Positions 1,873 to 24,214 of a DNA stretch of 42,440 nucleotides are shown here, in pieces (positions within the stretch are counted from its first letter, which is position 1; each line of letters starts with the position of its first letter). The notes under the pieces are model-generated. The model saw only the letters and a list, made by a program, of their open reading frames with translations. It had not been told where the DNA came from and did not search any database. The translations under genes and the position numbers were made by a program. This stretch comes from Coriobacteriales bacterium (GTDB taxonomy: Bacteria; Actinomycetota; Coriobacteriia; Coriobacteriales; UBA8131): NCBI GenBank assembly GCA_031267175.1, contig JAIRZP010000003.1, positions 1 through 42,440 of the forward strand. Reading direction: 5' to 3'.

Positions 1873-1959
1873 ATGTGCAGCAAGGCCCACAAGGGCAAGA
1901 CGTGTTCGAAGTGTGGGGCGTTTGAAGGCGGTGGCTGCTCGGAGTGCAATGGATGGTAA
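1873..1959 (+). CDS. Cys-rich micro-protein, 28 aa (MCSKAHKGKTCSKCGAFEGGGCSECNGW), two CxxC knuckles
   Basis: ATG at 1873 is preceded by AGGAGG (1861-1866) at 6-nt spacing. The stop TAA is at 1957-1959. It contains CSKC and CSEC motifs and lies directly upstream of a larger zinc-finger ORF. Confidence 0.4.
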   Translation: MCSKAHKGKTCSKCGAFEGGGCSECNGW

Positions 1960-2060
1960 GCCCTAGGTCCTGAGCAGGACATTAAAAGGCTCAGTCCTAT
2001 CAAGTGTATTTGTAAGTTGGAAGCGCTGGCATGGAGCCAGCAAAACGAAAGGAGTATGAA

Positions 2061-2216
2061 ATGAGTGACAAGCGTTGTGTGGTGTGTGATGGCAACGGCA
2101 AGTGTGTGAGCTGCGAGGGTTCCGGCAGGAATCACCTCAATGCTCCCTGTGGTGGGTGCGGTGGTTCTGGAACGTGCCCTCGCTGCAAGGGCAGGGGTCG
2201 TGACCCCCAGAAGTAG
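2061..2216 (+). CDS. Free-standing DnaJ-type cysteine-rich zinc-finger protein, 51 aa (four CxxCxGxG motifs)
   Basis: AAGGAG sits 6 nt upstream of ATG 2061, so the track start at 2031 is less likely. The motifs CVVCDGNG, CVSCEGSG, CGGCGGSG and CPRCKGRG match the CxxCxGxG x4 signature of the DnaJ CR domain. Confidence 0.65.
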   Translation: MSDKRCVVCDGNGKCVSCEGSGRNHLNAPCGGCGGSGTCPRCKGRGRDPQK

Positions 2217-2271
2217 GGTTGTTAAGGCAAACCGCCAGCATTCAAGCTGGTATGACCGAAAGGAGAAAGAA

Positions 2272-2727
2272 ATGAGCACTTTTGCTTTGACCAACAACAA
2301 CGAGAAGGAGGACATCATGCAGGAGAAGGAGTATGACCAGAAGATGGTCGCCAGCACGGACACGGTAGTGGACAAGTCCAAGCTCACGAATCCGTGGGCG
2401 CGTAAGAACAGCGAGAAGGAGGACATCGTGAACGACAAGAAGTACGACCAGAAATTGGTGCCCGGCACCTTTGGCGGCGGAGTCCAAAGCCAGCGTCTGA
2501 CGCCGGGCACGTTCCGAGGCGGCGTGCAGTCTCAGCGTTTGACTCCCGGTACCTTCCGGGGTGGCATCCAGAGCCAACGCCTCACCCCTGGAACCTTCCG
2601 AGGCGGTGTGCAGAGCCAGCGCCTGACCCCAGGCACCTTCCGTGGAGGGGTACAGAGCCAGCGTCTGACGCCGGGCACTTTCCGCACCATCACCCTTACG
2701 GCTGGCCAGCTCCTCAAGCGCTACTGA
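2272..2727 (+). CDS. Tandem-repeat protein, 151 aa: duplicated EKEDI..YDQK leader followed by about 5.6 copies of a 14-aa unit QRLTPGTFRGG(V/I)QS
   Basis: AGGAG (2261-2265) sits 6 nt upstream of ATG 2272. The track's 2140 start overlaps the preceding ORF and has no SD. The repeats are in frame, and synonymous variation between copies argues for real coding. Confidence 0.75.
   Translation: MSTFALTNNNEKEDIMQEKEYDQKMVASTDTVVDKSKLTNPWARKNSEKEDIVNDKKYDQKLVPGTFGGGVQSQRLTPGTFRGGVQSQRLTPGTFRGGIQSQRLTPGTFRGGVQSQRLTPGTFRGGVQSQRLTPGTFRTITLTAGQLLKRY
2449..2685 (+). repeat. 42-bp (14-codon) in-frame tandem repeat array: one degenerate, four full and one truncated copy
   Basis: Unit starts are at 2449, 2491, 2533, 2575, 2617 and 2659, an exact 42-nt period. 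The peptide is nearly invariant while codons differ (Pro as ccg/ccc/cct/cca; Arg as cga/cgg/cgt/cgc). Confidence 0.95.
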
Positions 2728-2739
2728 TGCGCAGGGCTG

Positions 2740-2774
2740 TGGCGGCGCTCCGAGGATCAGTCGGAGCGCCGCCA
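2740..2774 (+). terminator. Strong GC-rich hairpin just after the repeat-protein stop codon; candidate attenuator or mRNA-stabilising stem-loop, with no U-tract
   Basis: tGGCGGCGCTCCGA (2740-2753), loop ggatcag, then TCGGAGCGCCGCCa (2761-2774). This is a perfect 14-bp stem starting 13 nt after the TGA at 2725-2727. Confidence 0.5.
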
Positions 2775-2847
2775 GTACGGCCGCCAAGCAATTCACGCGA
2801 AGGGCAAGCAGCAATACGGCCATCAATTTTGGAAGGAGGGAGCGAGG

Positions 2848-3282
2848 GTGTCAAGCATGACAGGCTGGTTGAACCGGAACTTCCCGGGTATCGCCAACAA
2901 GATCGGCTACTGCAAGCGTGTGTTTCAACCGCGAAGCGGGACGCTTGGTGCCACGCAGGGAGTGCATATGGATTACTACGGAAACATACCCGCCGATGCG
3001 GACGAGGAAGACATCTACGCAACCGAGGACGGCTACATGGAGGTAGCGTTCTGGTACCACCGCCTTGGCGAAGGCAACTGGAGGGTCTACATCCTTTCAG
3101 ACATCAACTATCACGGACGGGATTCTGGATCACATCCATCTCACCGCTATCACGACAGCACCTTGAATATGCACTACATCTGTTACGACCAGACAATCCG
3201 CACGAAGGCCGAGGCCAAGAACGTCTCAGCCGACTGGGCAGACCTTACCGCCCACTATATCCAGACAGGCACACCGTTCTAG
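2848..3282 (+). CDS. Small conserved-pair protein A (144 aa from GTG 2848, or 104 aa from ATG 2968); the Cys-containing paralog
   Basis: GGAAGGAGGG lies upstream of GTG 2848, and third-codon positions are G/C-rich from 2848 on. An alternative SD, AGGGAG, sits 6 nt before ATG 2968, where similarity to the next gene begins. Contains HPSHRYHDSTLNMHYICYD. The C-terminus VSADWADLTAHYIQTGT is shared with the next gene. Confidence 0.7.
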   Translation: MSSMTGWLNRNFPGIANKIGYCKRVFQPRSGTLGATQGVHMDYYGNIPADADEEDIYATEDGYMEVAFWYHRLGEGNWRVYILSDINYHGRDSGSHPSHRYHDSTLNMHYICYDQTIRTKAEAKNVSADWADLTAHYIQTGTPF

Positions 3283-3308
3283 TATCAACCAAGAGAAGGG
3301 AGTTATTG

Positions 3309-3632
3309 ATGAACATAGTTGAAGCTTCAAGCAGGGGCATACCCGCTGATGTGGACGAGACCGACGTCTACATGACCGAGGATGGCTACATCGCAATCGA
3401 GTTCTGGTACCACAGGATGCAGGACAACACCTGGAGGGTTTACATCATGTCCGACATCGACTATCACGGCAGGGATGTCAGCTCCAGTGTGTCACACACC
3501 CATTCTGATGACGGCAATGGGTACAAACACATTTCCTATGAGGCCGTCCAGGACAAGAAGACTGCCAAGGCTGTATCGGCCGACTGGGCAGACCTTACCG
3601 CCCACTATATCCAGACTGGCACAAGGTTTTAG
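3309..3632 (+). CDS. Small conserved-pair protein B (107 aa); Cys-less paralog of the preceding gene
   Basis: AAGGGAG lies upstream of ATG 3309. The protein aligns with protein A (IPADxDExDxYxTEDGY, FWYHR, WRVYIxSDIxYHGRD, VSADWADLTAHYIQTGT). The position equivalent to the Cys reads HISY. Confidence 0.75.
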   Translation: MNIVEASSRGIPADVDETDVYMTEDGYIAIEFWYHRMQDNTWRVYIMSDIDYHGRDVSSSVSHTHSDDGNGYKHISYEAVQDKKTAKAVSADWADLTAHYIQTGTRF

Positions 3633-3660
3633 AAACCTATCGAGAAAAGGAGACAATACC

Positions 3661-5277
3661 ATGAAGAGAGCAAAAGCAGGTAAGCAGAGCATCAATGCGA
3701 GGCACGTCACAGTGCACAACCGCTTCGGAGCAGCATGGTTGTGCATCACCGGCAGGGACATTGCATGGAAGAATGTTGAGCCCAAGATCATTCCTTTCGT
3801 CTTTCAGGATGCCGAAATCCTGTCGTCCGCTGGGCGAGCATCAACCGCAGGTAAGGCACCTCAAACCCTTTATACGGAGCCGATTCAGATAACTCATGAG
3901 GTCTACTCCATGATCAAGAACACCGTGGGAACGTTCCGTCCTGAGACCGGCATGATGCTTGGTACCAGCGACGGACAGGTAATCGACCATTGCTACTTCG
4001 ATGAAAACGCTCAAGTGAGCGGCGGCGAGTACAACCCGAACATTGACCATCTCAACGATATTGTCCTCCCGACGTGGAACTCCCGTGGCATCAGCATGGT
4101 GGGCTTCGTCCACTCCCACCCCTGTGGCTACTGCACCCCCAGTCCATGGGACATTCAGTACGCAGGAGAGTTACTCAGCATTCTGCCGGGTCTGTCCAAG
4201 TTCGTCATACCAATCGTCCAGAGCCGCGCCACCGGGCAGTTCAGCATCCAGTTCTACTGTGTGCGCCGCTCGCTCTCGAACGCGTCATTCGTGGAGCCAT
4301 GCAAGCACAAGATCATCTTCAGGAACAGGACAGATGAGGATGATGCCGTGACGAATGCCATGGCACTGCGCACCGGCGAGGTCTACCCCCGTGACGTGAT
4401 GGCCACGAAGACCGTCGTTGTCGTTGGCTGTGGTGGCTCCGGCGAGTATGTCGAGTACCTCGCCCGCTGCGGTGTCGGCAGGATAATCCTCATCGATGGG
4501 GATAAGTATGAGCGCTCGAACATCGAGACGCAGAAGGCATATACCGATGAGATTGGCGTGCCAAAGCCGTTCGCCCTTGCCACCCGCGTGGCAAGGATTG
4601 ATCCGGACATCGAGGTAGTGGCCGTACCCCACAATCTCGACAACGACTTTGAGGACGACGTGTTCGCAGCGCTGATTGGCCAAGACATCCTGACGGATCG
4701 ACCAAAGGACGTCCTGATTGCAGGCTGCACTGACGACTTCTATGCCCAGATGCGCACTGCCCGTCTGGCGTTGAACCTCAGCTGCCCCTATGTGGCAACC
4801 CAGATCTATGCCAGGGGAGACGGAGCCGAGGTCATATTCACCTACCCCGGTGTCACGGCTTCCTGCCCGCGCTGTATGCTCGGAAGCCGTTATGACGCAT
4901 ACCTTGAGGAAGGCTTTGTCAACGACACCACATCGGCGCAGGCACCGCTCTTCTGCACCCAGCGCGCCAATGCCACAGTGGGCTTCATCAGCTCAATGCT
5001 ACTGCTATACGGCTGTGCGCCAACAAGCCGCTTCAACGACGAGCTGGATAAGGTGAAGAACCGCAACTTCGTGCTTATCCGCATGAGGGACAGCTTCGAT
5101 GCGCCGCCCTTCGACGGCGGATTCGCCGAGAGCGGTTACACCTACTATGACGACACCGCATGGGTGATGCAGGTGCCTGATGACGGTCTGGATGGCCGAC
5201 CGCGCTGCCCAGACTGCCATGGCCATGGAAACCTTCTGGCACTTAAGGGTATGTGCCGGGATACACGCAAGCTCTAG
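3661..5277 (+). CDS. JAB/MPN(JAMM) metalloisopeptidase fused to a ThiF/MoeB/E1-like adenylyltransferase (538 aa)
   Basis: AAAGGAG sits 8 nt upstream of ATG 3661; the track's 3382 start overlaps the previous gene out of frame. JAMM motif HSHPCGYCTPSPWD, i.e. HxHx7Sx2D (4111-4152), with an upstream Glu in RPETGMMLG. E1 Rossmann motif VVVVGCGGSGEYVEYLARCGVGRIILIDGDKYERSNIETQ (GxGxxG at 4426-4443). Also the CTDD motif and paired CPRC and CPDC zinc motifs, as in ThiF/MoeB. Confidence 0.85.
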   Translation: MKRAKAGKQSINARHVTVHNRFGAAWLCITGRDIAWKNVEPKIIPFVFQDAEILSSAGRASTAGKAPQTLYTEPIQITHEVYSMIKNTVGTFRPETGMMLGTSDGQVIDHCYFDENAQVSGGEYNPNIDHLNDIVLPTWNSRGISMVGFVHSHPCGYCTPSPWDIQYAGELLSILPGLSKFVIPIVQSRATGQFSIQFYCVRRSLSNASFVEPCKHKIIFRNRTDEDDAVTNAMALRTGEVYPRDVMATKTVVVVGCGGSGEYVEYLARCGVGRIILIDGDKYERSNIETQKAYTDEIGVPKPFALATRVARIDPDIEVVAVPHNLDNDFEDDVFAALIGQDILTDRPKDVLIAGCTDDFYAQMRTARLALNLSCPYVATQIYARGDGAEVIFTYPGVTASCPRCMLGSRYDAYLEEGFVNDTTSAQAPLFCTQRANATVGFISSMLLLYGCAPTSRFNDELDKVKNRNFVLIRMRDSFDAPPFDGGFAESGYTYYDDTAWVMQVPDDGLDGRPRCPDCHGHGNLLALKGMCRDTRKL

Positions 5278-5292
5278 AGAAAGGGGATCGAA

Positions 5293-6615
5293 ATGTTGAT
5301 GAACGAGATGAGGCCGCTGGTAGGGCCGACCGTACGAGAGGCAGGGGCATCCAACAGCTGCGTTGCCCTGACATTCGACCTGCCGCCCACATGCGAACCA
5401 GCAGTCTGCCAATTCGGCTTTGAGAAACACGGCAATACGGGATTGGTCATGATTGAGGAAGGCGTCACCTACCACGGCAATAACCCCGAGTTCCGCGCCT
5501 TCGTCGAGGAGGGTACCTACTCCTATGCCAGCGAGGCCGATCTGCGCAGGTTCTTGGACGTACTCGATGCAGTCGTGGCCGCAGAGGGCATGGCTGCGGA
5601 AAACCGGGAAGAACGAGAGGGCAACCCAGGTGACGCTGACCAGGAGGCTCGTGGCGCTCAACTGGAGGTCATAAGGCTCTTTGATGAGGATGTGTTCAGG
5701 GTGTCCATGGGCGAGGACATCAGGGGCCAGGGCGAGGCCATAGAAGCCATTTTGCCGCTGCTGTCCACCGCAGTCAGGAAGCATCTCTCAAGCAGACCCT
5801 TGGTGGTCGTCCTTGCTGGGGAGACCAGCATCGGCAAGACCTCGTTTGCTGTCAAACTGGCCGAGGCAATCAATGCGGCCACCGGCGCTGAGTTCGGTAC
5901 CATCAGAATCGACATGAACCAACTTGGTGAGCGCCATGCCACCAGCCGCTTCTGGGGTCCACCTCCTGGATACGTCGGCTATGACCAGCCCACGGTGTTC
6001 GACCAGCTGCTGGAGAACCCCCGCCAGGTCATAGTCTGCGACGAGATGGAGAAGGGTGACCCCTTCATCATGAACGCATTGATGAACGCCATGGCAAGCG
6101 GGCGCATGGAAAGCTCCCGCATGCGCGAGGACGGCCGGGGCGAGTTCGACTTCTCCAAGAGCATCATGGTTTTCACCACAAACGTCGCCTTGGATGTCGA
6201 GGCCGACGCCACGCAGCGCGACATGACCCATGCCTGCAAGCAGCAGCTGCGCGACTACCACGCAAACGGCTACAGCTTCTCGCCAGAGATAGTCAACCGC
6301 TTCTCGGAGGTTATCGTCTTCAAGCCGATATCTGATGACGTGAAGCGTGAGATAGCCGAACTGTCCATTGTACGGCTTGCCCGTCAGTTCGAACTTGTCG
6401 TGGAGCATGTGGATGCAGATCTGCTCACGGCCTTTGCGGAGCGCTGCATCGCCGAGGAGGGCGTCCGGGAATTCGAGTACGAGGCGGAGCGTGTTTTCGG
6501 CGTTGCGATGGCCAACTACGACCAGGAAGCAGAAGGGCATACAGTCGCTGTGACCGGCACGATTGACGATCCCGTTGTCGAGCGTGCCGATGGTGCTGAG
6601 GTCCCAAATGGGTAA
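5293..6615 (+). CDS. AAA+ ATPase resembling the second nucleotide-binding domain (D2) of ClpA/ClpB, with a unique N-terminal region of about 170 aa
   Basis: GQGEAIEAI..., Walker A GETSIGKT (5818-5841), IRIDMNQLGERHATSRFWGPPPGYVGYDQ, Walker B VIVCDEMEK, MASGRMES...GRGEFDF, VFTTN and SPEIVNRFSEVIVFKPIS. These track the ClpB D2 consensus (IRIDMSEY..H.VSRLIGAPPGYVGY, DEIEKAH, DDGRLTD..GR.VDF, PEFLNRID). Confidence 0.85.
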   Translation: MLMNEMRPLVGPTVREAGASNSCVALTFDLPPTCEPAVCQFGFEKHGNTGLVMIEEGVTYHGNNPEFRAFVEEGTYSYASEADLRRFLDVLDAVVAAEGMAAENREEREGNPGDADQEARGAQLEVIRLFDEDVFRVSMGEDIRGQGEAIEAILPLLSTAVRKHLSSRPLVVVLAGETSIGKTSFAVKLAEAINAATGAEFGTIRIDMNQLGERHATSRFWGPPPGYVGYDQPTVFDQLLENPRQVIVCDEMEKGDPFIMNALMNAMASGRMESSRMREDGRGEFDFSKSIMVFTTNVALDVEADATQRDMTHACKQQLRDYHANGYSFSPEIVNRFSEVIVFKPISDDVKREIAELSIVRLARQFELVVEHVDADLLTAFAERCIAEEGVREFEYEAERVFGVAMANYDQEAEGHTVAVTGTIDDPVVERADGAEVPNG

Positions 6616-6624
6616 GTGGACTGC

Positions 6625-6657
6625 CTGGGGCATCCGCACGGCTTGTGGATGCCCCAG
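6625..6657 (+). promoter_or_regulatory. Perfect 11-bp stem-loop in the intergenic gap after the ClpB-like gene
   Basis: CTGGGGCATCC (6625-6635), an 11-nt loop, then GGATGCCCCAG (6647-6657). It begins 10 nt after the stop at 6613-6615 and has no U-tract. Confidence 0.4.
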
Positions 6658-6686
6658 AAATTCTAACAGATTGGAGGATGGTTAAC

Positions 6687-7382
6687 ATGACTGCTGTATT
6701 GACTGCCGTGGCTGCGGTGCCATATGACCCTATGCAGGAGGTTTGGGACGTGATGGCGAGTATCGGACGCTGGGTTCTCGGCATCCTGGCCATTCTGGTG
6801 ATTATGAATGTTGTGTACTCCATCGTGAACACCATAAATAAGGGAAAGAAGGTGGAGGCTACTCTTAGCACACGGTTCATGGAAGTCCAGAACCAGCTGG
6901 CTGACTGCATGTTCCGTATTCGTTCCATTGGTAGCATTACAAATTCTGAGGCAGCCTTCCTAGAGACAATAATGCATGAAGCCATTTCAGGGCGCTATGG
7001 AGAAGGCCAGGGGGCTAACGCATTTATCCTTGCCGAGAACTACCCTGAGTTGGCAGGCGCTTCGGTACCGTTTGAGAGAATTGCCGAGGCCATCAATGGA
7101 TCGATGGCCGATTTCAGGAGACAGCAAAGCTCGCTTCTATCTCAGTTGGAACAATTCGAACACTGGCGTACGGGGACACTGTTGTCTCGTATCGTGATAG
7201 GAAACAGATACCCTGACCGCGATCTTATCGCAAGGATCGGCAACAACACATACTACGGGCCGGAAGCCCTGGAGCAGATGTATCGCATAGTGCATACCAG
7301 CGAGTCGCTCCAAGCTTACAACGAGGCCATTTTAACCCCATATGACCACAATGGATATGCCCTTGACGCAGGGCTTGACTAG
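6687..7382 (+). CDS. LemA-like single-pass membrane protein (231 aa)
   Basis: GGAGG (6673-6677) sits 9 nt upstream of ATG 6687. An N-terminal TM helix (WVLGILAILVIMNVVYSIV) is followed by helical segments. AENYPELAG and downstream residues resemble the LemA AENYPDLKA block. Assigned from memory of the LemA consensus. Confidence 0.55.
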   Translation: MTAVLTAVAAVPYDPMQEVWDVMASIGRWVLGILAILVIMNVVYSIVNTINKGKKVEATLSTRFMEVQNQLADCMFRIRSIGSITNSEAAFLETIMHEAISGRYGEGQGANAFILAENYPELAGASVPFERIAEAINGSMADFRRQQSSLLSQLEQFEHWRTGTLLSRIVIGNRYPDRDLIARIGNNTYYGPEALEQMYRIVHTSESLQAYNEAILTPYDHNGYALDAGLD

Positions 7383-7406
7383 GATGAATCGAGGAGTTGA
7401 ACTTGG

Positions 7407-8084
7407 ATGGTTACTAAGGCCATTACACGCGATGACTACAGGGCGAAGCTGTTCACTCCGCTGAGCAGCACATTTGGGGTGCCGATTGCCTTCAACGGCG
7501 AGAGTAACGCTGGTCGGATTGCCGGTGGCAGGACACTTGGGATATATGTTCATGCTGACCACGCCATAGTAATCAGATACCGCGATTGTCCCGTGTCGCT
7601 GTTCAAGACGGTTGCCCATGAGATAGGCCATGCCACCGACCCCTCACTCAGTCCAGAGGCACTGAGTTCTGTGGAGCCACAACTGCATGGCGGCCACAGG
7701 AGCTATGAAGAGGCCGTGGCCCGGTTCGTTTCCTACTATTCTCTCTGTTATGCAGGCGTAAAGGTTCCCAGCGAAAAGGTTCGCGCCGACGAGCTGCTGG
7801 CTAAGCACGAGCGTGTCTATAGAAGGTATAAAACCGAGCCGCTGAAGCTCCACATCTTGAACCTGATGGAGATAGCCGAGGTCATCGCCTTCGTTGCCAA
7901 GCCGGGACGGATGGAGCTGTTGGATGGATGGAGCGACGATTGGGGGTCCTGCAAGTTCTGCAGGGACTATCCAAAGGGCATAAGACCCTGCAAGTTGCTG
8001 GCGGAGCCAGTGGTTGAGAAAGCGGGCGGCAGAGCTGCCGCCCGTCGCAAGAACAAAAGGAAGCGTAGTAAGAATTATGCATAA
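7407..8084 (+). CDS. Putative zinc metallopeptidase (HExxH), family unassigned, with a basic C-terminal tail
   Basis: GAGGAG lies upstream of ATG 7407. VAHEIGHAT contains HEIGH at 7617-7631. The C-terminus is RAAARRKNKRKRSKNYA. Confidence 0.6.
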   Translation: MVTKAITRDDYRAKLFTPLSSTFGVPIAFNGESNAGRIAGGRTLGIYVHADHAIVIRYRDCPVSLFKTVAHEIGHATDPSLSPEALSSVEPQLHGGHRSYEEAVARFVSYYSLCYAGVKVPSEKVRADELLAKHERVYRRYKTEPLKLHILNLMEIAEVIAFVAKPGRMELLDGWSDDWGSCKFCRDYPKGIRPCKLLAEPVVEKAGGRAAARRKNKRKRSKNYA

Positions 8085-8097
8085 GGAGGTAGTTCAC

Positions 8098-9093
8098 ATG
8101 AGAAATAAAGTTATCGCAATTGGTGAACATGCATCAAAGGTTGTCGAGGAAATCGAGAATCGCTATATCTATAAAATGGCGCGAGGTCAAAAAGGAGTGC
8201 CGCTCGAAATCCCAATGATCAAACAGGTGAGCCCATTTCTATGCAAGTTCGATATCCTCAGCGTAGTCGATGCAGATACAGACTTCATCCGCATTAATGA
8301 AGTATCGATTCTAAATGGATGTTGGCGAGCGAACTTTACAGCCATGGCTTTGGAGCAAGGAAAGGCGCTGATTGGCGACAACGTTTTCTTTGTAATTGCG
8401 CGAGGCGACGATGAAGCCATGAGCACCGTTAGTCACTCTGTCAAATCCAAAAAAATGAAAGGAAAAGAGTTGGTTGTCTGTTTTCTGTTGGATTATTCGA
8501 CCGCACAAGCTCAAATAGAAGGCGAAAGCGCTGCATGTGAAGCAAGGCTGGCGGAGGAAATCGATGCTTTGGTAGTCGTTCCCGTTAACGGACTCGCAGA
8601 CTTTTCTCAGATTAAATCACTAACAGAAGATTCAAATAATGCAAAGTGGCGTGCCGCCAGGGAGGCAGGCAAGGATAGTATTACTGTAACGACTTCTCCA
8701 TTTCATGATGAAAAAAGTGCTGCCGCATATGCTATTTGGATCTTTTTACAGGCAGTTTCTAAGAGCGACGAAAGCCTGAATTCCATGTCAGATGGTATTA
8801 AAACTGCAATTAACGATTTAGGTATAGTTCACCTTGCCCTTAAGATGTCTTTAATGGACTGCAAGAACGAATTTGTTGTAGAGAATGCCATAAGGAACCT
8901 CTGCGACAAAACTGATTCCTCAACAGTTAACCATTCTCTTGCAATTATCGCTTCCGTAAATACCTGTATGTCGGCATATACCGGGGCTGTCATTGGTGCG
9001 TCTATGGATCCAACAAACCTAGAATTTGCTTTTGAGTGTGTCTTTGATGACATCTTGAAGGATTGGCTTGTCGTGGTTTATGTGGTGGCATAA
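8098..9093 (+). CDS. FtsZ/tubulin-like protein with degenerate GTP-binding loops (331 aa); homology tentative
   Basis: AAGGAGG sits 8 nt upstream of ATG 8098. By eye it is colinear with FtsZ:
- NKVIAIGEHASKVVEEI vs IKVIGVGGGGNNAVNRM
- FDILSVVDADTDF vs VEYIAVNTDAQAL
- DNVFFVIARGDDEAMSTVSHSV vs [22 protein letters not shown]
- IDALVVVPVNGL vs VDTLIVIPNDRI
- C-terminal NLEFAFECVFDDILKDWLVVVYVVA vs NMIFGSVINENLKDEIVVTVIATG
The glycine-rich T1 and T4 loops are replaced. The gene is visibly AT-rich. Confidence 0.4.
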   Translation: MRNKVIAIGEHASKVVEEIENRYIYKMARGQKGVPLEIPMIKQVSPFLCKFDILSVVDADTDFIRINEVSILNGCWRANFTAMALEQGKALIGDNVFFVIARGDDEAMSTVSHSVKSKKMKGKELVVCFLLDYSTAQAQIEGESAACEARLAEEIDALVVVPVNGLADFSQIKSLTEDSNNAKWRAAREAGKDSITVTTSPFHDEKSAAAYAIWIFLQAVSKSDESLNSMSDGIKTAINDLGIVHLALKMSLMDCKNEFVVENAIRNLCDKTDSSTVNHSLAIIASVNTCMSAYTGAVIGASMDPTNLEFAFECVFDDILKDWLVVVYVVA

Positions 9094-10338
9094 ATGGCTG
9101 CAAGTCAGACAAATATCATTGACTTCAAGAAGGCTCGAGCCGAATTGAAGAGGAGCGAGCGACTGGTCACCTTGCCCATCAGACGCTCCAGGCTCAAGTC
9201 CAGGGCAGCAGCCATTCTGCTGGTTGCATTGGCCGTTGCCGTATCGGCAGTTGCTCTGGTTGCTAGGTTCATAGACAATGCCATGTATCCCAGCGACTGG
9301 TTCAATCCCTTGTCGCTGCTGGTATGGTTCGTAATTGGCCTTACCGCATTGGCTTGCGGATGGGCGTTGTTTGATGCTGGGTCACTCTATCAGAATCGTT
9401 GGTGGGTCTGGGGTGCAACGGTGTTGATGTTCTGGCTGCTCTGGACTTTTGGCGACCACTATTGGCGCTATCTCTATCTCAAAATAGGCGATGTCCACAT
9501 CCCGTCGCAGGCGTTCATTGTTATGGTTGTCGTGTCTCTCACGCTCCTCGTGGAGACTCAGCGCAAGCGTGGGGTGTGGGGGATGTATTTTTTTGCTGTC
9601 GGCCTTATGGTTGTGGCTGCTGCATCAGTATTCTTCAGCATATCGTTGTCGTTTTTAACCGTTTTTGTGTGCATCGTGGTAATTGGTACTGCTGTCGCCA
9701 GGAACCACTATGGCGACAGGCGGTGTAGGAAGGTGTTCATCGTTGGTGCTAGCATTGTGCTGTTGGCGGTGGCCTCCTATATCATAGTCGGGACGCAGCG
9801 AGTAGATCGCCTGTCAGTGTTCTTTACGGATGGCGCGAGTGATCCGTTGGACTATGATTATCAGTTCCAAGCAGCGGATATGATTGGCTATGCTTCTCAG
9901 CTTTTAGGCCAACTCGAAGAAATGACCGACGAGGTTTTTCTTGCCAGAAGCCTGTTCGGGTATTCAGATTATCCATTTCTGGACATAGGGTTCGTCTTTG
10001 GGCGTCTTCCCTCTCTGGCTGTTGTGGCAGCGTGTCTGGTGACAGCCTGGCTTGCACTCAGGGCTTCACGATATGATGCAAATCGTTACGGCGGTCTAAT
10101 TACGACTGGGCTTGCGGCAACCATCGCCTTCCAGGTGCTGTTTGGGATACTGAACAACTATGGACTGACTCCCTCTGCAAGCTCAATCACAGTACCGCTG
10201 GGTAGCGAGACCGGGTTGCCTTTGGTGCTTCATATGTTCATGGTGTGGGCATTGGCCTCAGCCCTCTGGAAGCCGCGACTGCCCAATTTAACAGAACCGC
10301 TTAGGGAGAAGACCCAACGCTGGAGGAAGGCTGCATGA
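9094..10338 (+). CDS. Divergent SEDS (FtsW/RodA/SpoVE)-like polytopic membrane protein (414 aa)
   Basis: ATG 9094 abuts the previous stop (TAAATG). There are about 10 hydrophobic segments. The C-terminal half is colinear with FtsW/RodA:
- DRLSVFF..DPLDYDYQFQAADMIG vs RL..[21 protein letters not shown]
- GYSDYPFLDIGFVFG vs LPEAHTDFIFAIIGEE
- TIAFQVLFGILNNYGLTPSASSITVPLGSETG vs [32 protein letters not shown]
Several signature residues are substituted. Confidence 0.55.
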   Translation: MAASQTNIIDFKKARAELKRSERLVTLPIRRSRLKSRAAAILLVALAVAVSAVALVARFIDNAMYPSDWFNPLSLLVWFVIGLTALACGWALFDAGSLYQNRWWVWGATVLMFWLLWTFGDHYWRYLYLKIGDVHIPSQAFIVMVVVSLTLLVETQRKRGVWGMYFFAVGLMVVAAASVFFSISLSFLTVFVCIVVIGTAVARNHYGDRRCRKVFIVGASIVLLAVASYIIVGTQRVDRLSVFFTDGASDPLDYDYQFQAADMIGYASQLLGQLEEMTDEVFLARSLFGYSDYPFLDIGFVFGRLPSLAVVAACLVTAWLALRASRYDANRYGGLITTGLAATIAFQVLFGILNNYGLTPSASSITVPLGSETGLPLVLHMFMVWALASALWKPRLPNLTEPLREKTQRWRKAA

Positions 10339-12242
10339 GCGGCAGAGCCCACAAGACCCGCATTATGCTGATGGTGCTGGTCGATGTCTCTTGCGCAGAC
10401 GAGTCGGATCAGGCTTGCAGGGAGCGCCTGGCCTCGCTCGATGATGCCGTCAACTCCTACAAGAAGGAACTGAGACGTATGGGAGCGGGACATAACGTTG
10501 TGATTGCAACCGCCGCCTTTGCAAACAGGCTCTTCGACCACTCTGCATTCAACAACGACTCGCGTGTTGACTTCTCCCCAGTCGTGAGCGATTCCTCTTG
10601 CTGGGCAGAACCGTTAGCATGGGCAATGAAAAAGATTGAGCATGCGAAAAAGGTCTATGACCTCGAAAACGCGATCCATTTCCCGCCGATAGTACTGTTC
10701 TTCTCCGCATCCAACACTGAAGACAGGTACGGCGAGGCTATCGAAGCCCTGCGCGATGCTCGTGCAAATGGCGATATCACAGTAAGGGCTATCGGCACAA
10801 AGGGCAGACCTGAGCTGCTGGCTCTCCAAGGTATGACGGATGACGTGGTATTGGTTGATCCCAAAGACACGACAGGTTGGGTTGAGGAGTTCTTCCGTAC
10901 CACCGACATGATAAAGGCGGTCTTGAATGGCAAAAGGCCATTCGATTCAGTGGCTGTCAAGACGCTGATCAACGAGACAATCAATACTCTGGATTTGGGA
11001 GCTGGCGTATTCCCGGAGCAGGCTATGGCCAAGATTTCTATGGCGCTAAAGAAGCAGAACGCCGTTGTTCGCAACAAGCTGGACCTGGAATCTGATGCTA
11101 CGTTCAGTATCGAAGAGGCGCGTGCTGTCGTGAAGGCGCTGAACTCGATGTGCGACAGGATGCCCGAGCGATGCCGAGGGTTTGCCGAGGACATTGGCGT
11201 TCAATACAGGGCGGCATCCAGTGCGAGGACTCCCTCGTCGCCAGAAGATGACAGCAGGAGACTCAGCGAAGAGTCTTCTGGGGATTCTGCCGTTCAGTCG
11301 CTGCCTAAGAAGAACAAGAAGGGCAAGAAGGCCACCGAGCAAGATGTTCCGAAGACTATGGAGCTGCCGCTGGAGATTATGACCAAATCCGAGATGGAGC
11401 TCGCTGCCCTCATCGGCCTTGATGAGGTCAAAGCGGTGGTGGGAAAGATAGTCGCTCTGGCTAAGCTCAACAAGAGGTATCCCCGACGCGGCAAGCCAAG
11501 ACAAACCTTTTTGCACATGGCATTTCTGGGGAACCCGGGTACTGCCAAGACCACTGTCGCACGTCTGCTGGCGAAGATTCTCCAAGAGCATGGCATCCTT
11601 CGTAAGGCCGAGCTAGTGGAGGTTGGCAGGGATGGCCTCATCGGTAGATACGTAGGCTCCACTGCGCCAAAGGTTGTCGCGGCATTCGACAAGGCCAAGG
11701 GCAGCATACTGTTCATCGACGAGGCACACTCTCTCGTTGACAGCGGACGCGGAGACTATGGAGACGAGGCACTGGCGACGATAGTGAAGGAGATGGAAAA
11801 TCGATGCGGTGACCCAGTGGTAATCATGGCTGGCTACCCACGGGAGATGGAGGCGCTGTTGCATCAAAACGCAGGACTGAAAAGTCGTATCAAGTTCATC
11901 GTGAACTTCCCCGACTATTCCGATGAGGAGATGCTCATGATTGCGGAGCGAACAGCGAAACAATACGGCTATGCGCTTGCTGGCGGCATTCGCGAAAAAG
12001 TGATGTCTATGATTGCCGAGGCTAGGAGAGACGAGACATTCGGCAATGGCCGTTGGGCACGGAGCCTCATTGAGCAGGCGGAGCTAAACCTCGCCGACCG
12101 CCTCATCAAGCTGAGCATCGACGAGATTGACGACGCTATGCGGAACACACTGACAGCTAAGGACTTCGAAACCCCACCTGACATCAAGCTCAAACACAGA
12201 AAGCAGAAAATCGGCTTCATGCCACAAGAGCGCAACAAGTAA
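10335..12242 (+). CDS. vWA-like N-terminal domain fused to a CbxX/SpoVK/EccA-type AAA+ ATPase (635 aa)
   Basis: The start overlaps the upstream stop (ATGA at 10335-10338). The N-terminus RIMLMVLVDVSCADES...IVLFFSASNTED...ITVRAIGTKG has a vWA-like strand pattern, but the DxSxS MIDAS motif looks degenerate. The C-terminus has LIGLDEVKAVV, Walker A GNPGTAKT (11529-11552), GRYVGSTAPKV, Walker B ILFIDEAHSL, VIMAGYPREM and GLKSRIKFIVNFPDYSDEEM, the classic CbxX/SpoVK layout. Confidence 0.8.
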   Translation: MSGRAHKTRIMLMVLVDVSCADESDQACRERLASLDDAVNSYKKELRRMGAGHNVVIATAAFANRLFDHSAFNNDSRVDFSPVVSDSSCWAEPLAWAMKKIEHAKKVYDLENAIHFPPIVLFFSASNTEDRYGEAIEALRDARANGDITVRAIGTKGRPELLALQGMTDDVVLVDPKDTTGWVEEFFRTTDMIKAVLNGKRPFDSVAVKTLINETINTLDLGAGVFPEQAMAKISMALKKQNAVVRNKLDLESDATFSIEEARAVVKALNSMCDRMPERCRGFAEDIGVQYRAASSARTPSSPEDDSRRLSEESSGDSAVQSLPKKNKKGKKATEQDVPKTMELPLEIMTKSEMELAALIGLDEVKAVVGKIVALAKLNKRYPRRGKPRQTFLHMAFLGNPGTAKTTVARLLAKILQEHGILRKAELVEVGRDGLIGRYVGSTAPKVVAAFDKAKGSILFIDEAHSLVDSGRGDYGDEALATIVKEMENRCGDPVVIMAGYPREMEALLHQNAGLKSRIKFIVNFPDYSDEEMLMIAERTAKQYGYALAGGIREKVMSMIAEARRDETFGNGRWARSLIEQAELNLADRLIKLSIDEIDDAMRNTLTAKDFETPPDIKLKHRKQKIGFMPQERNK

Positions 12243-12285
12243 AACCGCTAAGGTTACTGTCATAGATTGAGAGGTTGGCCAAGAA

Positions 12286-13302
12286 ATGGTAGAACAGACT
12301 AAGAATATTGCAAAAGCGTATTCTCTGCTTGGCTTGGAATATGGCTCAGATTTGCACACCATCCACAGAATGTGGAAAAGGAAACTAAAAGAGTCCCATC
12401 CCGACTTTGGTAAAGATAAAAAGGATGAACTACGAAGAACAAAGCGTGCGCAGGAGCTGAACGAAGCTTATAAAGTCCTGGGGAATGCCTGTCGGAAGGG
12501 TTTGATTCCACAGGGAAAAAAGCCAACCAAAGCTCAACCAGCGCCCATCCCAAGCCCAAACACTGAAGCAAAAACGAATAAAGGCATAAATTCAAAGCTT
12601 CGACCCAAACGCCCTGACCATGGCAATGCGAAGCGTGAAGATGCTTTTGCTGATCTCTATCAGTCATGGTGCGACAAAAAGTTTTGGGTGGACGAGCTTG
12701 CAATACTTTCAGAAAACCCGCAGGTAGCGCTTCCAAGAGATGTCTGTGATGCTCTGGAGTGCATTATCAGAAGCGTTTCGCGGCATAGCGTTATGAAGGA
12801 GTGGTGGTGGCCAGATATTCGCATTCTGCGCCCCCCATACCGGAAGTATGCTTATCCAGGAAGTGGTACCGCCCTAATTACCAAGCGTCTAGAGCACATG
12901 GTCAGATGTCTCGGCTTAAAGAGTATCGGGCAGGAGGATTTTTGCAATTTGAGATCGCTGCTGTGGGTGACGTTCGGTTCAATGCTGAAAGACAGAATCG
13001 GAGCAGAACCGGGTTTGTTCGACCTCTTTTTTGCAGTGAACACAGAAAATACTAAACTGGTAGAGTCTTGGATAAAGATGTATCAGCCAGGATATATAAA
13101 CAGCCGAGTCTATCGGCAAATGTCCGCACGAAACAAGGGGAAGCGGAAACCGGGGAAGCTCGCCTACGCTCGCGAGGTCTGGTATGTGCAGCACAAAGGC
13201 AGAAGGCTTGAGGAAGATGTCTACAAAAAATTGGAGCAGGCCTGTCAGCTTTATGTTGTTCGCACAATCATCAAGTATGAATGGCCCCAGGACTCATTGT
13301 GA
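12286..13302 (+). CDS. J-domain (DnaJ N-terminal domain) protein with an unknown C-terminal region of about 230 aa (338 aa)
   Basis: AYSLLGLEYGSDLHTIHRMWKRKLKESHPDFGKD...AQELNEAYKVLGN, with the HPD tripeptide at 12397-12405. There is no Gly/Phe region and no zinc finger. The gene is AT-richer than its neighbours. Confidence 0.8.
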   Translation: MVEQTKNIAKAYSLLGLEYGSDLHTIHRMWKRKLKESHPDFGKDKKDELRRTKRAQELNEAYKVLGNACRKGLIPQGKKPTKAQPAPIPSPNTEAKTNKGINSKLRPKRPDHGNAKREDAFADLYQSWCDKKFWVDELAILSENPQVALPRDVCDALECIIRSVSRHSVMKEWWWPDIRILRPPYRKYAYPGSGTALITKRLEHMVRCLGLKSIGQEDFCNLRSLLWVTFGSMLKDRIGAEPGLFDLFFAVNTENTKLVESWIKMYQPGYINSRVYRQMSARNKGKRKPGKLAYAREVWYVQHKGRRLEEDVYKKLEQACQLYVVRTIIKYEWPQDSL

Positions 13303-13316
13303 GCGACGGTCATGCA

Positions 13317-13347
13317 GAAGAACTGGCTAAGCCAGCCTTCTTCTTTG
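13317..13347 (+). terminator. Candidate intrinsic terminator closing the long plus-strand operon
   Basis: GAAGAACTGGC, loop TAA, then GCCAG-CC-TTCTTC followed by TTTG. It starts 15 nt after the J-protein stop. The stem is imperfect and the U-tract short. Confidence 0.45.
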
Positions 13348-13427
13348 TCGGTATGAGGGGGATAATTGAACTTGTGCTGCATCGGGATAGCTCAATGCGA
13401 TTATATCTGAAATGAGCAGACGCCTTG

Positions 13428-13455
13428 CTATCTGGGACGCACTATCTGGGACGCA
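13428..13455. repeat. Perfect tandem direct repeat, 2 x 14 bp (ctatctgggacgca), in the gap upstream of the phosphatase-like gene
   Basis: Copies at 13428-13441 and 13442-13455 were read directly and are followed by a partial third copy, cta. Confidence 0.9.
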
Positions 13456-13482
13456 CTAACCTATTACGAGCTTGAGGTGAAG

Positions 13483-14034
13483 ATGAATCGGTTGATGAGC
13501 GAAATCCTATATGATGACAACAAGCAGGAGATTGGTCGTGTGGCTTTCAGGCAAGTGATTATCAGGGCGCATCCCATCTTGCAGCGGCTGGATGACGAGG
13601 GGCTTCCACCGGGCAGCTCAGCGTTGGTGTTAGTGACAGACTGGTCGTTCGAGGAGGGCGACGCCTGTGGCGGCTTCGCTTGCGAGCTGAGGGTTGAGTT
13701 TTCCGATGTCACCAATGCGAGGCGTAAGGACTCCATGAAGCCGGAACATGCCCAGACGATAGCCAGATTCATCAGATCTCTCGGCGAGCACATCGACAGC
13801 ATCGTAATCAGCTGTGCCGGGGGCATGTCGAGAAGCCCAGCAATCGCGGCCGCAATCATGTTGGCGCAAGGCCAAGCTGACATGGCTATCTGGGAGAACC
13901 CCAACTACTCACCCAACCCGCTCTGTTATCGCCTAATGCTGGAGGCATTCGGTTTGCCTACTGACCAGGTGAAGAGCAAAATCAAAACCAGCAAGAGAGC
14001 CTTTGAAACAGCGTTTGGCCGGTGCACGGAGTGA
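13483..14034 (+). CDS. Cys-based phosphatase-like protein (CX5R P-loop; PTP/DSP superfamily), 183 aa
   Basis: GAGG sits 5 nt upstream of ATG 13483. IVISCAGGMSRSPAIAAAIML contains C-A-G-G-M-S-R-S, i.e. CX5R(S/T), at 13813-13833. Confidence 0.55.
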   Translation: MNRLMSEILYDDNKQEIGRVAFRQVIIRAHPILQRLDDEGLPPGSSALVLVTDWSFEEGDACGGFACELRVEFSDVTNARRKDSMKPEHAQTIARFIRSLGEHIDSIVISCAGGMSRSPAIAAAIMLAQGQADMAIWENPNYSPNPLCYRLMLEAFGLPTDQVKSKIKTSKRAFETAFGRCTE

Positions 14035-14056: not shown

Positions 14057-14611
14057 TTAGGAAACAATCTCTACAATATCGGCAACCTGCTTGCCAGATG
14101 ATTTGCCGTACTCAAGCAGGGCTTTTGCAAGCATGTCGATGGCTTGCCACTGATGTGTGAGTTCTTCAGACCACTGCCGAATGAGATCAGTGCGAGTATT
14201 ACCTTGAGCGTTGCAAAACTCCTGTTCTCGCAATATCTCGTTTATTGCGGGATACCAGTCATTATGGTCGTCTCCGAGCTCATATGAATCCTTGAGACTC
14301 TCGCGATTCATCTCAATATAGTCATCAAGAGAAAGTTCGTTATTTTCTCCGCCATCCAGGCGCCATTGTTCTTGACTCTCTGCAAATACCCCAGCAAACA
14401 AGACAAAGACATCAGCATGATTTGCTGTTCCAGTGTGAGCATAGCCCAGTGTCCCGTAGTCGCTGTTAGAAATTATTGTGACTGTTCCAGCTGAACCAGG
14501 ATGCCGCAGTTCAGCCGCCACTGCATGACCAGCCTCGTGAAAGGCAATCAGCGTTAGCTCTAATTCAGACAAGCCATACGGGTTTGGGATTGCTGGATTC
14601 AACGGAGTCAC
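14057..14611 (-). CDS. Stand-alone FtsH-type (M41-like) zinc metallopeptidase domain protein, with no AAA+ module and no TM (184 aa)
   Basis: LIAFHEAGHAVAAELRHPGSAGTVTIISNSDYGTLGYAH resembles the FtsH segment AYHEAGHAIVG..P..DPVHKVTIIPRG.ALG. HEAGH is at 14525-14539. It is the last gene of the minus-strand backbone unit. Confidence 0.5.
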   Translation of the reverse strand: MTPLNPAIPNPYGLSELELTLIAFHEAGHAVAAELRHPGSAGTVTIISNSDYGTLGYAHTGTANHADVFVLFAGVFAESQEQWRLDGGENNELSLDDYIEMNRESLKDSYELGDDHNDWYPAINEILREQEFCNAQGNTRTDLIRQWSEELTHQWQAIDMLAKALLEYGKSSGKQVADIVEIVS

Positions 14612-16431: not shown

Positions 16432-16508
16432 AGGTACTCCTGTTCTGATTGGGATACGGCATTTGATGTATACTTATGAAGGCAACCGTTGATGCTTGGA
16501 GACATAAA

Positions 16509-16838
16509 ATGACCAAGATGCAGATACTGCTTGATGATGAGAAGATCAGGCGCGAGCGCAAGCTCAGCCCCGTAAAGATGCAGGCGTTCATCGACTCCGT
16601 GTTCATCGACAGGTGCAGGCTTGCCAAGGATACGGACGGTTTCTACACCGGCACCGGCGACAGCGGCGACCTGATGCGCTTCGGCCAGGCCAACTACCTT
16701 TTGAGCAGCCAGCCCTGGTTTTTGGACAACGTGAAGAGTTGGGTGTTTTACAGCAACGACGACACGGATGACCCCGACGAGTACGTCGTGGAGGACGTGA
16801 AGGGCTACTACCTCGGCAAGCGCCAAGCCATAGCATGA
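16509..16838 (+). CDS. Partner protein of the VapD-like gene (109 aa), copy 1; possible VapX-type antitoxin
   Basis: ATG 16509 (MTKMQILLDDEK) aligns with the start of the paralog at 38290 (MIKMQIVMDDDK), and both are 109 aa. They share GFY.G.G..D..RFG, QPWF(L/M)DNV..W.(F/Y).(S/N).DD..DP(D/E). The stop overlaps the vapD-like start (ATGA). Confidence 0.6.
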   Translation: MTKMQILLDDEKIRRERKLSPVKMQAFIDSVFIDRCRLAKDTDGFYTGTGDSGDLMRFGQANYLLSSQPWFLDNVKSWVFYSNDDTDDPDEYVVEDVKGYYLGKRQAIA

Positions 16839-24027: not shown

Positions 24028-24214
24028 AGGCGACTTTGATGATCACCTCGTTTAAGGCGTCGGTGGTCTTGCCTTCTGCGATGCGCTGGTTGCGCTCGTC
24101 TGCAAGGGCGGCAAGCACCGCTCCGCGCTCACAGCGATCAAGCTCAACGACGACAGTTGCGTCATCGGGCATCTCTATCACCCCTGTTGCCCTGCCGTGC
24201 CTTAGATTCAGCAT
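23984..24214 (-). CDS. Small hypothetical protein (76 aa; alternative start ATG 24172 gives 62 aa)
   Basis: The ORF lies between the ArdC-like and coupling-protein genes. The start is ambiguous, and the 119-aa track version overlaps the upstream gene extensively. Confidence 0.3.
   Translation of the reverse strand: MLNLRHGRATGVIEMPDDATVVVELDRCERGAVLAALADERNQRIAEGKTTDALNEVIIKVAYAPSKKRRGRDEAR

Follow-up and report, generated by a model that had tools for sequence, protein, structure and literature searches.

Does a run of closely packed, co-directional genes carried by a conjugative element form a single system, or have a conserved unit and local cargo come to lie side by side? The question is raised by a 42,440-nt stretch of DNA from a Coriobacteriales bacterium (contig JAIRZP010000003.1 of assembly GCA_031267175.1, positions 1–42,440; hereafter the window), in which 13 open reading frames (ORFs) on the + strand span positions 1873–13302. 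A first-pass annotation, made from the sequence alone, had proposed that the whole block, about 11.5 kb with some 14 genes, could be one tag-activate-unfold-degrade pathway. In the reading that we prefer, with a confidence just short of even, the block is two things joined: a mobile conserved module (2272–6615), which would work by the mechanism set out below, and a lineage-specific tail (6645–13302). The module consists of a repeat-peptide precursor, small paralogous proteins (here called par proteins), a JAB–E1 fusion and a ClpB-like AAA+ ATPase.

Four genes linked across phyla

The core genes and the repeat array in the window are as follows.

2272–2727, + strand: core gene 1, tandem-repeat peptide precursor, preceded by an AAGGAG Shine-Dalgarno sequence
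2464–2684, + strand: tandem array of 42-nt repeats, 5.3 copies (Tandem Repeats Finder: period 42, 74% nucleotide matches)
2857–3282, + strand: core gene 2a, par protein A, 141 aa, with Arg88, His96, Cys109, Trp127 and a C-terminal ...YIQTG138TPF
3309–3632, + strand: core gene 2b, par protein B, 107 aa, in which Ser replaces the conserved Cys and Thr replaces Arg97
3661–5277, + strand: core gene 3, JAB(JAMM) peptidase–ThiF/E1 adenylating fusion, 538 aa (Pfam ThiF 4.7e-21, Prok-JAB 1.8e-3)
5293–6615, + strand: core gene 4, single-ring ClpB/ClpA-D2-type AAA+ ATPase, 440 aa (AAA_2 5.6e-21, TIGR ClpB 1.5e-31)

The JAB–E1 protein served as the anchor for comparison, and its relatives fell into 71 clusters at 90% identity. 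Genomic contexts were taken from metagenome contigs and from one genome per species, together with loci found via the small paralogs. Both tblastn with every window protein and all-against-all clustering of the neighbouring ORFs agree that only 2272–6615 recurs, in about 28 loci (numbered with the prefix L below) from about nine phyla. These loci belong to Coriobacteriales, several families of Clostridia, Streptosporangiaceae, other Actinomycetota, Zoogloeaceae, Acidobacteriaceae, Reyranella, Phycisphaerae, Pseudodesulfovibrio and Pontiellaceae, and a named strain, Pseudoflavonifractor phocaeensis An569, carries the module (NZ_JACLZC010000005.1, 35351–52742). About 27 of the approximately 28 loci have both a par gene and the JAB–E1 gene, and in about 24 the AAA+ gene joins the two. 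Because this linkage recurs in loci of unrelated phyla, the tag/activate/unfold core is, as far as gene content can tell, real and beyond chance. Most genes of the block are not syntenic with the core elsewhere, and the unit of some 14 genes is not a conserved system.

Two gene orders were observed. One runs peptide, par, JAB–E1 and AAA+; the other, reversed, runs peptide, small membrane protein, AAA+, JAB–E1, a paralog of the AAA+ N-terminal domain and a membrane-anchored par. In the reversed-order loci L010, L012, L014 and L015, par bears an N-terminal membrane anchor; in L010, L012 and L014, the gene that comes after the repeat-peptide gene encodes a small protein with two or three membrane helices. 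In L035 tblastn revealed no par gene; the JAB–E1 protein of this locus is longer (680 aa), and the par function may be missing or fused there. In L016, a metagenome-assembled genome (MAG) of Acidobacteriaceae, an IS21-type element (transposase plus IstB, 3258–5521) lies inside the JAB–E1 gene, and this copy of the module is probably dead.

Components of the core

The fusion of a JAB domain to a ThiF/E1 domain had been recognized at first pass and is upheld by the ThiF and Prok-JAB hidden Markov model matches and by the JAMM residues E95, H151-S-H153 (H-x-H), S161 and D164, which are invariant among the 31 sequences from which conservation was read. Equally invariant are the E1 and zinc-site residues GxG256–258, R269, D281, K302, D358, CPRC402–405 and CxxC516–519. 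C356, in a C-T-D motif by D358 in the adenylation core, is the only conserved Cys outside the zinc site; in these 31 sequences no Cys is conserved at the MoeB/ThiF positions, that is, in the stretch from D358 to the first CxxC or directly behind the latter. Among the best sequence matches in the PDB are TcdA, MccB, UBA5 and PaaA; Citrobacter BubCD is matched as well. The BubCD match (9ea4; query residues 123–349, E=1.6e-5) is the only one among the matches listed that starts in the JAB domain and continues into the E1 domain. No full-length relative of the fusion was found in PLSDB, GenBank phages or IMG/VR (two search patterns in the last), and its absence from GenBank phages and IMG/VR argues against a phage counter-defence gene.

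The AAA+ protein had been called ClpB-D2-like, and its AAA_2 match (75.7 bits against a cutoff of 27) and TIGR ClpB match bear this out. It aligns to the D2 half only (TIGR ClpB positions 565–784 of 853). ClpB proper additionally has D1 and an M-domain, and the protein is, judged by its sequence, a relative with a single ring rather than a true ClpB. The elements conserved across 13 homologs comprise Walker A, the GYVG pore loop, Walker B, sensor-1 and Arg. The N-terminal domain of about 100 aa is family-specific and occurs as a stand-alone gene in the reversed-order loci, where a product of about 103 aa is encoded between JAB–E1 and par (L010 9592–9903, L012 6711–7019, L014 9836–10147, L015 3039–3347). 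This stand-alone protein was considered as a hidden ubiquitin-like protein (Ubl) and rejected, being a paralog of the AAA+ N-terminal domain that ends in LY(K/R), not Gly.

The product of core gene 1 consists of a 106-aa leader, one degenerate unit, five 14-aa GGVQSQRLTPGTFR units and a 14-aa tail. It had been described as an RGG-repeat protein; a repeat protein it is, but the repeats are tandem 14-aa units, and its place as a conserved partner of the E1 had been missed. Within the leader (2272–2590), ahead of the 14-aa units, a different repeat of about 27 aa, EKEDI[MV].[ED]K.YDQK[ML]V, is present twice. The window units are 97% identical in amino acids versus 76% in nucleotides, and across the arrays of several loci the values are 96–100% versus 75–98%. 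Since the units are near-identical as peptides and divergent as DNA, it is the peptide sequence and not the DNA repeat that is under selection, and the units are evidently held by purifying selection.

Short ORFs with related units lie beside the core in 17 loci, with the consensus [LIM]-P-x-G-[TG]-[FW]-[RH]. In a six-frame scan of the loci collected up to then, the repeated motif was confined to these ORFs. Examples are as follows.

L009: GGDDIPAGTFH, three full units after a first one ending TFQ; the ORF stops after TFH
L010: GGEQ....MPAGTFR, three units; the ORF stops after TFR
L033: DDELPEGGFRG, four units; the ORF stops after FRG
L006 and L034: GGRQGDLDGGTWH, three to four units; the ORF ends one or two residues after TWH
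L032: EEELPAGTFRG, four units, the first with GIFRG; the ORF continues beyond the repeats
L011: a single unit, 24 aa; the ORF stops after IPAGTFH

In about half of the loci the stop codon directly follows the last [RH], and in several the leader runs straight into the Gly-Gly that opens the first unit, which argues that the unit extends from GG through [RH] and that a free ...F-[RH] carboxylate may matter. In two par proteins, P0280 and P0300, one unit (VPVGSFH and IPEGTWR, respectively) is fused directly ahead of the par domain, a gene-fusion link between the two small components. The repeat-peptide gene of the Lachnospiraceae MAG L012 contains masked bases (N) at about 3020–3125, and that of L035 (4667–5008) extends past the repeats into a Cys-rich tail.

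The two small paralogs had been noted at first pass and are indeed present, but their role as conserved partners of the E1 was overlooked. They share a domain of about 95 aa with near-invariant His, Cys, Arg and Gly residues that is not modelled in Pfam. When 1.84 billion cluster representatives were searched with a profile, 879 members were obtained at E≤1e-3 (representatives counted at 50% identity), and 610 at the stricter E≤1e-10. Among 261 members, His96 is conserved in 259, Cys109 in 254 (Ser in six), Arg88 in 252, Trp127 in 260 and Gly138 in 259. The domain always forms the C-terminus of the protein. The tail after Gly138 has mostly 3–4 or 8 residues (8 in a large subgroup), with Phe at G+3 in 67% of members, and about one-third of the members have an N-terminal hydrophobic segment. 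The pair of A and B forms is also found in L001, the closest relative of the window locus, where the ortholog of par protein B likewise has Ser for Cys; judging from these replacements, par protein B may be a non-catalytic variant.

An AlphaFold2 (AF2) model of par protein A, built with 60 sequences, has a predicted local distance difference test (pLDDT) score above 90 over residues 50–141 and comprises three strands, a loop that holds Arg88, a hairpin whose two ends bear His96 and Cys109, and a long helix that ends at Gly138. Foldseek searches of the PDB and BFVD with this model gave no match with E below 0.3, and no ubiquitin-conjugating (UBC) or ubiquitin fold appeared among the best 50 matches listed for each database; a search of PDB sequences with a par profile was likewise empty. 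An E2 of UBC fold or a β-grasp Ubl had been suggested by the His-x13-Cys spacing together with the C-terminal Gly; neither identity was borne out by the Foldseek and PDB profile searches, and both were rejected. The peptide motif and the par tail both have a G-x(1-2)-F element near the C-terminus. By-eye inspection of the two across loci gave no clear pattern of covariation.

Proposed mechanism and competing explanations

The four parts are genetically linked across phyla, and the peptidase, adenylating-site and translocase motifs are intact in the sequences. How the parts would act together is more tentative, and our confidence in the chain as a whole lies between doubtful and nearly even. 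The JAB domain would cleave the repeat precursor, most probably on the C-terminal side of the [RH] closing each unit, by analogy with the cutting of BubAB by BubCD, and would free peptides of 11–16 residues ending in ...G-T-F-[R/H]. The E1, which resembles BubCD and MccB in having no conserved catalytic Cys, would adenylate the C-terminal carboxylate of the peptide or of the par tail and form no E1 thioester. The activated acyl group could then be transferred by the Cys/His of par, with the par Cys in an E2-like role within an unrelated fold, or pass straight to a target, and the AAA+ ring would take hold of the marked protein and unfold it. A JAMM peptidase atop an AAA+ ring has a precedent in Rpn11 of the proteasome lid. 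In its fullest form the core would be a third kind of prokaryotic protein tagging beside β-grasp Ubl and Pup, with a peptide precursor organized like poly-ubiquitin, E1 activation, par as the carrier, a ClpB-like reader and a use against invaders, a proposal that we regard as speculative and consider clearly more doubtful than not.

The neighbourhoods of the core bear on the role of the module. Defence genes next to it include a type I restriction-modification system and type III CRISPR (L005), an nSTAND-kinase and a patatin (L002), a Card1-kinase and TIR (L006) and SIR2 (L034). Mobility genes include coupling protein and relaxase genes (L008/L018 and L006), a HerA/VirB4-like ATPase (L010–L015), a recombinase (L033) and an integrase (L020). 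Because the core adjoins defence and conjugation genes, a role in conflict is favoured, which suggests anti-phage or anti-plasmid defence or establishment of the element in a new host.

Several points weigh against the mechanism proposed here. The AAA+ gene is absent from L011, L019 and L020, and the peptide ORF was unrecognised in about seven loci with enough sequence (L004, L005, L016, L019, L020 and others), where it may be divergent. The likeness of par to an E2 or a Ubl is a functional analogy only. An Arg or His at the C-terminus would be unusual for an E1 substrate. Cleavage by JAMM enzymes is usually on the C-terminal side of Gly, and here it may instead fall behind the GG next to [RH]. 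Neither a protease nor an obvious toxic effector is among the conserved genes of the core; of the pathway first envisaged, the tag, activate and unfold steps are backed by the linkage of JAB–E1, unfoldase and small proteins in about 28 loci, but the degrade step is not. The tail, with its tight spacing and two genes common to L001, may also cooperate with the core in this lineage. Finally, PADLOC, NCBIfam, Pfam and the literature yielded no described system of this composition, as the first-pass annotation had claimed, with the reservation that the E1-neighbourhood survey of Burroughs et al. 2009 (Proteins 75:895) was not covered and may hold an earlier description.

Type I Bub (formerly 6E.1/DUF6527), which comprises BubAB, BubCD and BubE (PMC11601596; Iyer et al. 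2006, PMC1779556, row 6e), is the closest known system. In Bub, the JAB domain cuts a precursor, the BubAB fusion being cleaved by BubCD to release the modifier, and the operons as described contain no AAA+ or other ATPase (PMC11601596). The present core resembles it in the N-terminal JAB fused to a C-terminal homodimer-type E1, in an E1 without a conserved Cys at the usual crossover-loop position, and in the two fusions of a peptide unit to par, which may parallel the BubA–BubB fusion. However, the relation in sequence is remote (E=1.6e-5), with TcdA, MccB and UBA5 scoring better, and Pfam scans of the block ORFs found no Multiubiquitin, Prok-E2 or DUF6527 match; the core instead combines a short peptide in tandem repeats with a small Cys/His domain whose fold is unmatched and with a ClpB-D2-type AAA+.

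Among the competing explanations, one holds that the core makes a peptide product and not a tag: a multi-core precursor would be processed by JAB, and an E1 like MccB or PaaA, the enzymes of microcin C and pantocin, would cyclise the peptides or cap them with a nucleotide to give a toxin or signal. Multi-core precursors of ribosomal peptides typically have tandem identical units that purifying selection maintains. The units open with Gly-Gly and close at a fixed residue, so that an N-terminal Gly could attack the C-terminal adenylate. The best solved relatives of the E1 include MccB and PaaA, which share with the core the arrangement of a Cys-less E1-like adenylating enzyme beside a short ribosomal peptide. 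However, the peptides end in Arg or His and do not satisfy the C-terminal Asn rule of MccB substrates, and the core differs from MccB and PaaA systems in its tandem units, JAB fusion, par and AAA+. In the clustering of neighbouring genes, no microcin C-type MFS exporter, other exporter or immunity gene was conserved beside the core. The conserved protein-threading AAA+ with its intact pore loop and the neighbourhoods of defence and conjugation genes, not biosynthetic ones, also count against a peptide product, and we consider it unlikely.

A second explanation, to which we give a similarly low probability, takes par itself as the E1 substrate, in the manner of priming in the cyclic-oligonucleotide-based antiphage signalling system (CBASS): JAB would trim the par tail after Gly, the E1 would adenylate the new end and par would be ligated to a target, the repeat peptide serving as regulator, decoy or acceptor. 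The par domain is always protein-terminal, Gly138 is kept in 259 of 261 members, and the short tail after Gly, with its frequent Phe at G+3, has the look of a trimmed precursor. JAMM trimming of CysO and QbsE provides a precedent. Another is the action of Cap2/Cap3 on the CD-NTase C-terminus (PMC10097602). However, the N-terminal hydrophobic anchor of about one-third of par proteins would be odd in a transferable modifier, the near-invariant Cys/His/Arg triad suggests an enzyme or carrier and not a passive tag, and the strict conservation of the repeat units would stay unexplained. Type II CBASS Cap2/Cap3 and Bil (BilABCD) resemble the core in combining E1-type adenylation with JAB and in their location in defence islands and mobile elements (PMC10097602, PMC10557695). 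They differ in that no E2, CD-NTase or BilA-type Ubl was found here, that JAB is fused to E1, whereas in CBASS an E2–E1 fusion (Cap2) is paired with a separate JAB (Cap3), and that an AAA+ is added; the PADLOC Cap2 'E1-E2' models align only to the E1 part, at residues ~220–400 of the fusion.

Other known systems are more distant. In Pup–proteasome logic, a short and probably disordered tag is coupled to an AAA+ unfoldase that acts on the tagged proteins. The likeness of the core to Pup, PafA/Dop and Mpa/ARC lies in this logic only: the Pup ligase is glutamine-synthetase-like whereas an E1 is found here, the tag is not homologous, and the clustering of neighbours revealed no 20S proteasome or other protease conserved with the module. 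The AAA+ core matches PDC-M37B (1e-16) and Dodola DolB (3.9e-12) in PADLOC, but the ATPase core alone aligns, and the partner proteins of these systems are matched by no gene here. The NCBIfam scan assigned no block protein to a PRTRC family, although PRTRC cassettes, made up of system proteins A–F, also include a ThiF-family protein. Named defence systems as a whole were rejected, PADLOC giving only partial matches (Cap2, PDC-M37B, DolB, IetA) and NCBIfam generic ThiF/MoeB and Clp assignments. The core represents a widespread and apparently undescribed form of the E1/JAB pathways of bacteria, unusual in its repeat-peptide partner.

The tail, its conjugative setting and significance

The remaining features of the block and those just beyond it are as follows.

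1873–1959, + strand: 28-aa Cys-rich micro-ORF (predicted), MCSKAHKGKTCSKCGAFEGGGCSECNGW, with a GAGGAGG Shine-Dalgarno sequence; local accessory
2031–2216, + strand: 61-aa micro-protein with four CxxCxGxG units, recognized from its sequence
6645–7382, + strand: membrane-anchored protein, 245 aa, earlier 'LemA-like'; accessory
7407–8084, + strand: putative zinc peptidase with an HExxH (HEIGH) motif, 225 aa, basic C-terminal tail
8098–9093, + strand: orphan 331-aa protein, earlier 'degenerate FtsZ-like'; accessory
9094–10338, + strand: polytopic membrane protein, 414 aa, SEDS (FtsW/RodA)-like by sub-threshold full-length similarity
10335–12242, + strand: 635-aa protein with an N-terminal domain of ~330 aa and a SpoVK/CbbX/EccA-type AAA+ with AAA_lid_6 (TIGR02881)
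12286–13302, + strand: J-domain protein, 338 aa, with HPD motif (Pfam DnaJ PF00226, 3.7e-8)
~13317–13347, + strand: imperfect inverted repeat, AGAAGAACTGGCTAAGCCAGCCTTCTTCT, at the 3' end of the co-directional block
13477–14034, + strand: CX5R phosphatase-like protein, 185 aa, beyond the block (Pfam DSPc 1.1e-3, below cutoff)
14057–14611, − strand: 184-aa HEAGH protein, weakly FtsH (M41)-like, beyond the block (Pfam Peptidase_M41 4e-4, below cutoff)

The ORF map and upstream sequences agree with the first-pass description of the block. Shine-Dalgarno-like sequences precede most ORF starts in 1873–13302; the junctions include one of 0 nt at 9093/9094 and a 4-nt overlap at 10335 and otherwise measure mostly 13–55 nt, with wider gaps of 71 and 129 nt at two places and of 174 nt ahead of the phosphatase-like gene. 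The hairpin reported at 13317–13347 is present at the end of the block but imperfect: the scan detects only a 5-bp core at 13323–13335 with no clean T-run, so that a weak terminator is possible at most.

Several identities proposed for the tail genes did not hold. The 6645–7382 protein, called LemA-like, has no Pfam match; it matches phrog_1383 instead (E=1.6e-13), a family annotated 'virion structural protein', possibly unreliably, and it is 65% identical to the product of 13022–13723 in L001 only. For the 8098–9093 protein, called FtsZ-like, the sole match among 5.8 billion proteins is itself; no Pfam (E up to 10), PDB or PHROG match was obtained, the GGGTG[ST]G signature is absent, and a single-sequence AF2 model reaches a pLDDT of 34. 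The SEDS-like similarity of 9094–10338 is weak. Its alignment to Pfam FTSW_RODA_SPOVE (PF01098) is full-length and collinear over about 340 positions (residues 42–384 to profile positions 6–344 of 356), but with 17.8 bits (E=1.7e-3) it falls below the curated cutoff of 26.4; TIGR rodA (TIGR02210) matches at 4.4e-4, and there is no PDB sequence match.

The HExxH motif is present in 7407–8084 as called, and the product is a predicted peptidase; no Pfam or PDB match was found, only a weak one to phrog_4415 'peptidase' (2e-3). In L001 a SprT-like/Sel1 protein occupies the same position. In the 10335–12242 protein, described as a vWA-like/CbxX AAA+ fusion, the AAA+ part is secure (TIGR02881 1.5e-69, TIGR02880 1.2e-58, Pfam AAA, AAA_lid_6 6.7e-14), but the supposed vWA part is not: residues 1–332 have no Pfam or PDB match, and DVSCA is only a partial DxSxS metal-ion-dependent adhesion site motif. 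Since its scores lie below the equivalog cutoffs, the protein is classed by these profiles as a member of the CbbX/SpoVK/EccA clade and not as an ortholog. Its residues 7–463 are 33% identical to the product of the L001 gene at 15193–16599. The J-domain assignment of 12286–13302 is sound, with 33.8 bits against the PF00226 cutoff of 27.8 and the HPD within ...KESHPDFG...; no DnaJ C-terminal or zinc-finger domain was found in this protein.

The two genes beyond the block were described as CX5R phosphatase-like and M41-like. The former has the CX5R motif but only a weak DSPc match, and it matches phrog_5614 at 2.6e-10; the latter has HEAGH and a weak M41 similarity, but under the curated Peptidase_M41 cutoff. 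The 174-nt gap ahead of the phosphatase-like gene contains, at 13428–13458, 2.2 copies of a perfect direct repeat of 14 bp, CTATCTGGGACGCA, which may be an operator.

At the other end of the block, the CxxC micro-proteins were correctly recognized. No counterpart of the 28-aa ORF was found in other loci. The CxxCxGxG repeat of the 61-aa protein is the repeat type of the DnaJ cysteine-rich zinc-finger domain; Pfam gave non-significant matches only, to Anti-TRAP and BSD2_CRD, and the protein is common only to the closest relative, where a stretch placed at 8501–8659 or 8510–8665 encodes a product 65% identical. It shares the block with the J-domain protein and the ClpB-like ATPase. The low-GC leader at 1–1870 (43–47% versus ~58–60% in the remaining contig) contains no convincing ORF, tRNA or Rfam match and may represent one end of the element, a junction or a region with a regulatory role.

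Conservation of the tail is narrow. L001 (JAB–E1 72% identical) keeps, besides both paralogs and the CxxCxGxG micro-protein, the membrane-anchored protein and the CbbX-type ATPase, but it lacks genes of the FtsZ-like and SEDS-like kinds. L035, the third-closest relative (JAB–E1 57%), has ferritin and NlpC/P60 genes after the core. In none of the other approximately 28 loci do the HExxH, FtsZ-like, SEDS-like, J-domain, phosphatase-like or M41-like genes lie beside the core. Of the co-occurrences suggested at first pass, that of JAB–E1 with the ClpB-D2-like gene held, in about 24 loci, but that with the FtsZ-like and SEDS-like genes did not extend to other genomes, and that with the CbbX-type ATPase reached L001 alone. 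We therefore consider it quite improbable that the whole block is one integrated system, for example one that remodels or hijacks host proteostasis or the envelope after conjugative transfer: although its genes are co-directional, carry Shine-Dalgarno sites and are separated by −4 to 55 nt from 3282 to 13302, although in L001, too, the membrane protein (65%) and the CbbX-type ATPase (33%) come behind the core, another zinc peptidase taking the same position, and although the HPD J-domain, the DnaJ-type micro-protein and the ClpB-like ring share a chaperone theme, in all other related loci, L035 included, the core stands alone among unrelated genes, the FtsZ-like gene is without any homolog, none of the three genes of SEDS-like, HExxH and J-domain type recurs in another locus, and the window and L001 are close kin whose common genes may be mere co-inheritance.

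The claim that the block is cargo of a conjugative element is borne out by the genes downstream, a minus-strand conjugation backbone of Gram-positive type on which the block converges. The backbone encodes a CHAP hydrolase, a VirB4-like ATPase, a coupling protein, ArdC-N, DUF3801, a MobA/VirD2 relaxase, Toprim/DUF3991, a SNF2-type helicase and a SpaA-type surface protein. The SNF2/ResIII helicase protein (2115 aa) lies at 30266–36613 (−) and the ArdC-N-domain protein at 24162–25121 (−); both types are usually linked to anti-restriction or establishment functions of conjugative elements. A megablast comparison of the window with PLSDB gave no nucleotide match, and tRNA and Rfam scans across the window found nothing.

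For the window, the tail of divisome and chaperone look-alikes is local cargo of uncertain meaning and is not to be counted in the system without further evidence. For the module, a set of four small genes with clear catalytic residues, the consequences would be wider. If the proposed mechanism is true, E1-type activation would not be limited to β-grasp modifiers, a repeat peptide and a new Cys/His fold taking the place of Ubl and E2, and E1 chemistry would be tied directly to an unfoldase in bacteria. To our knowledge, a link between E1 and an unfoldase has so far been seen only in eukaryotic and archaeal ubiquitin or SAMP systems, Pup relying on a different chemistry. The module would then be a widespread addition to the candidate immune and conflict systems of bacteria.

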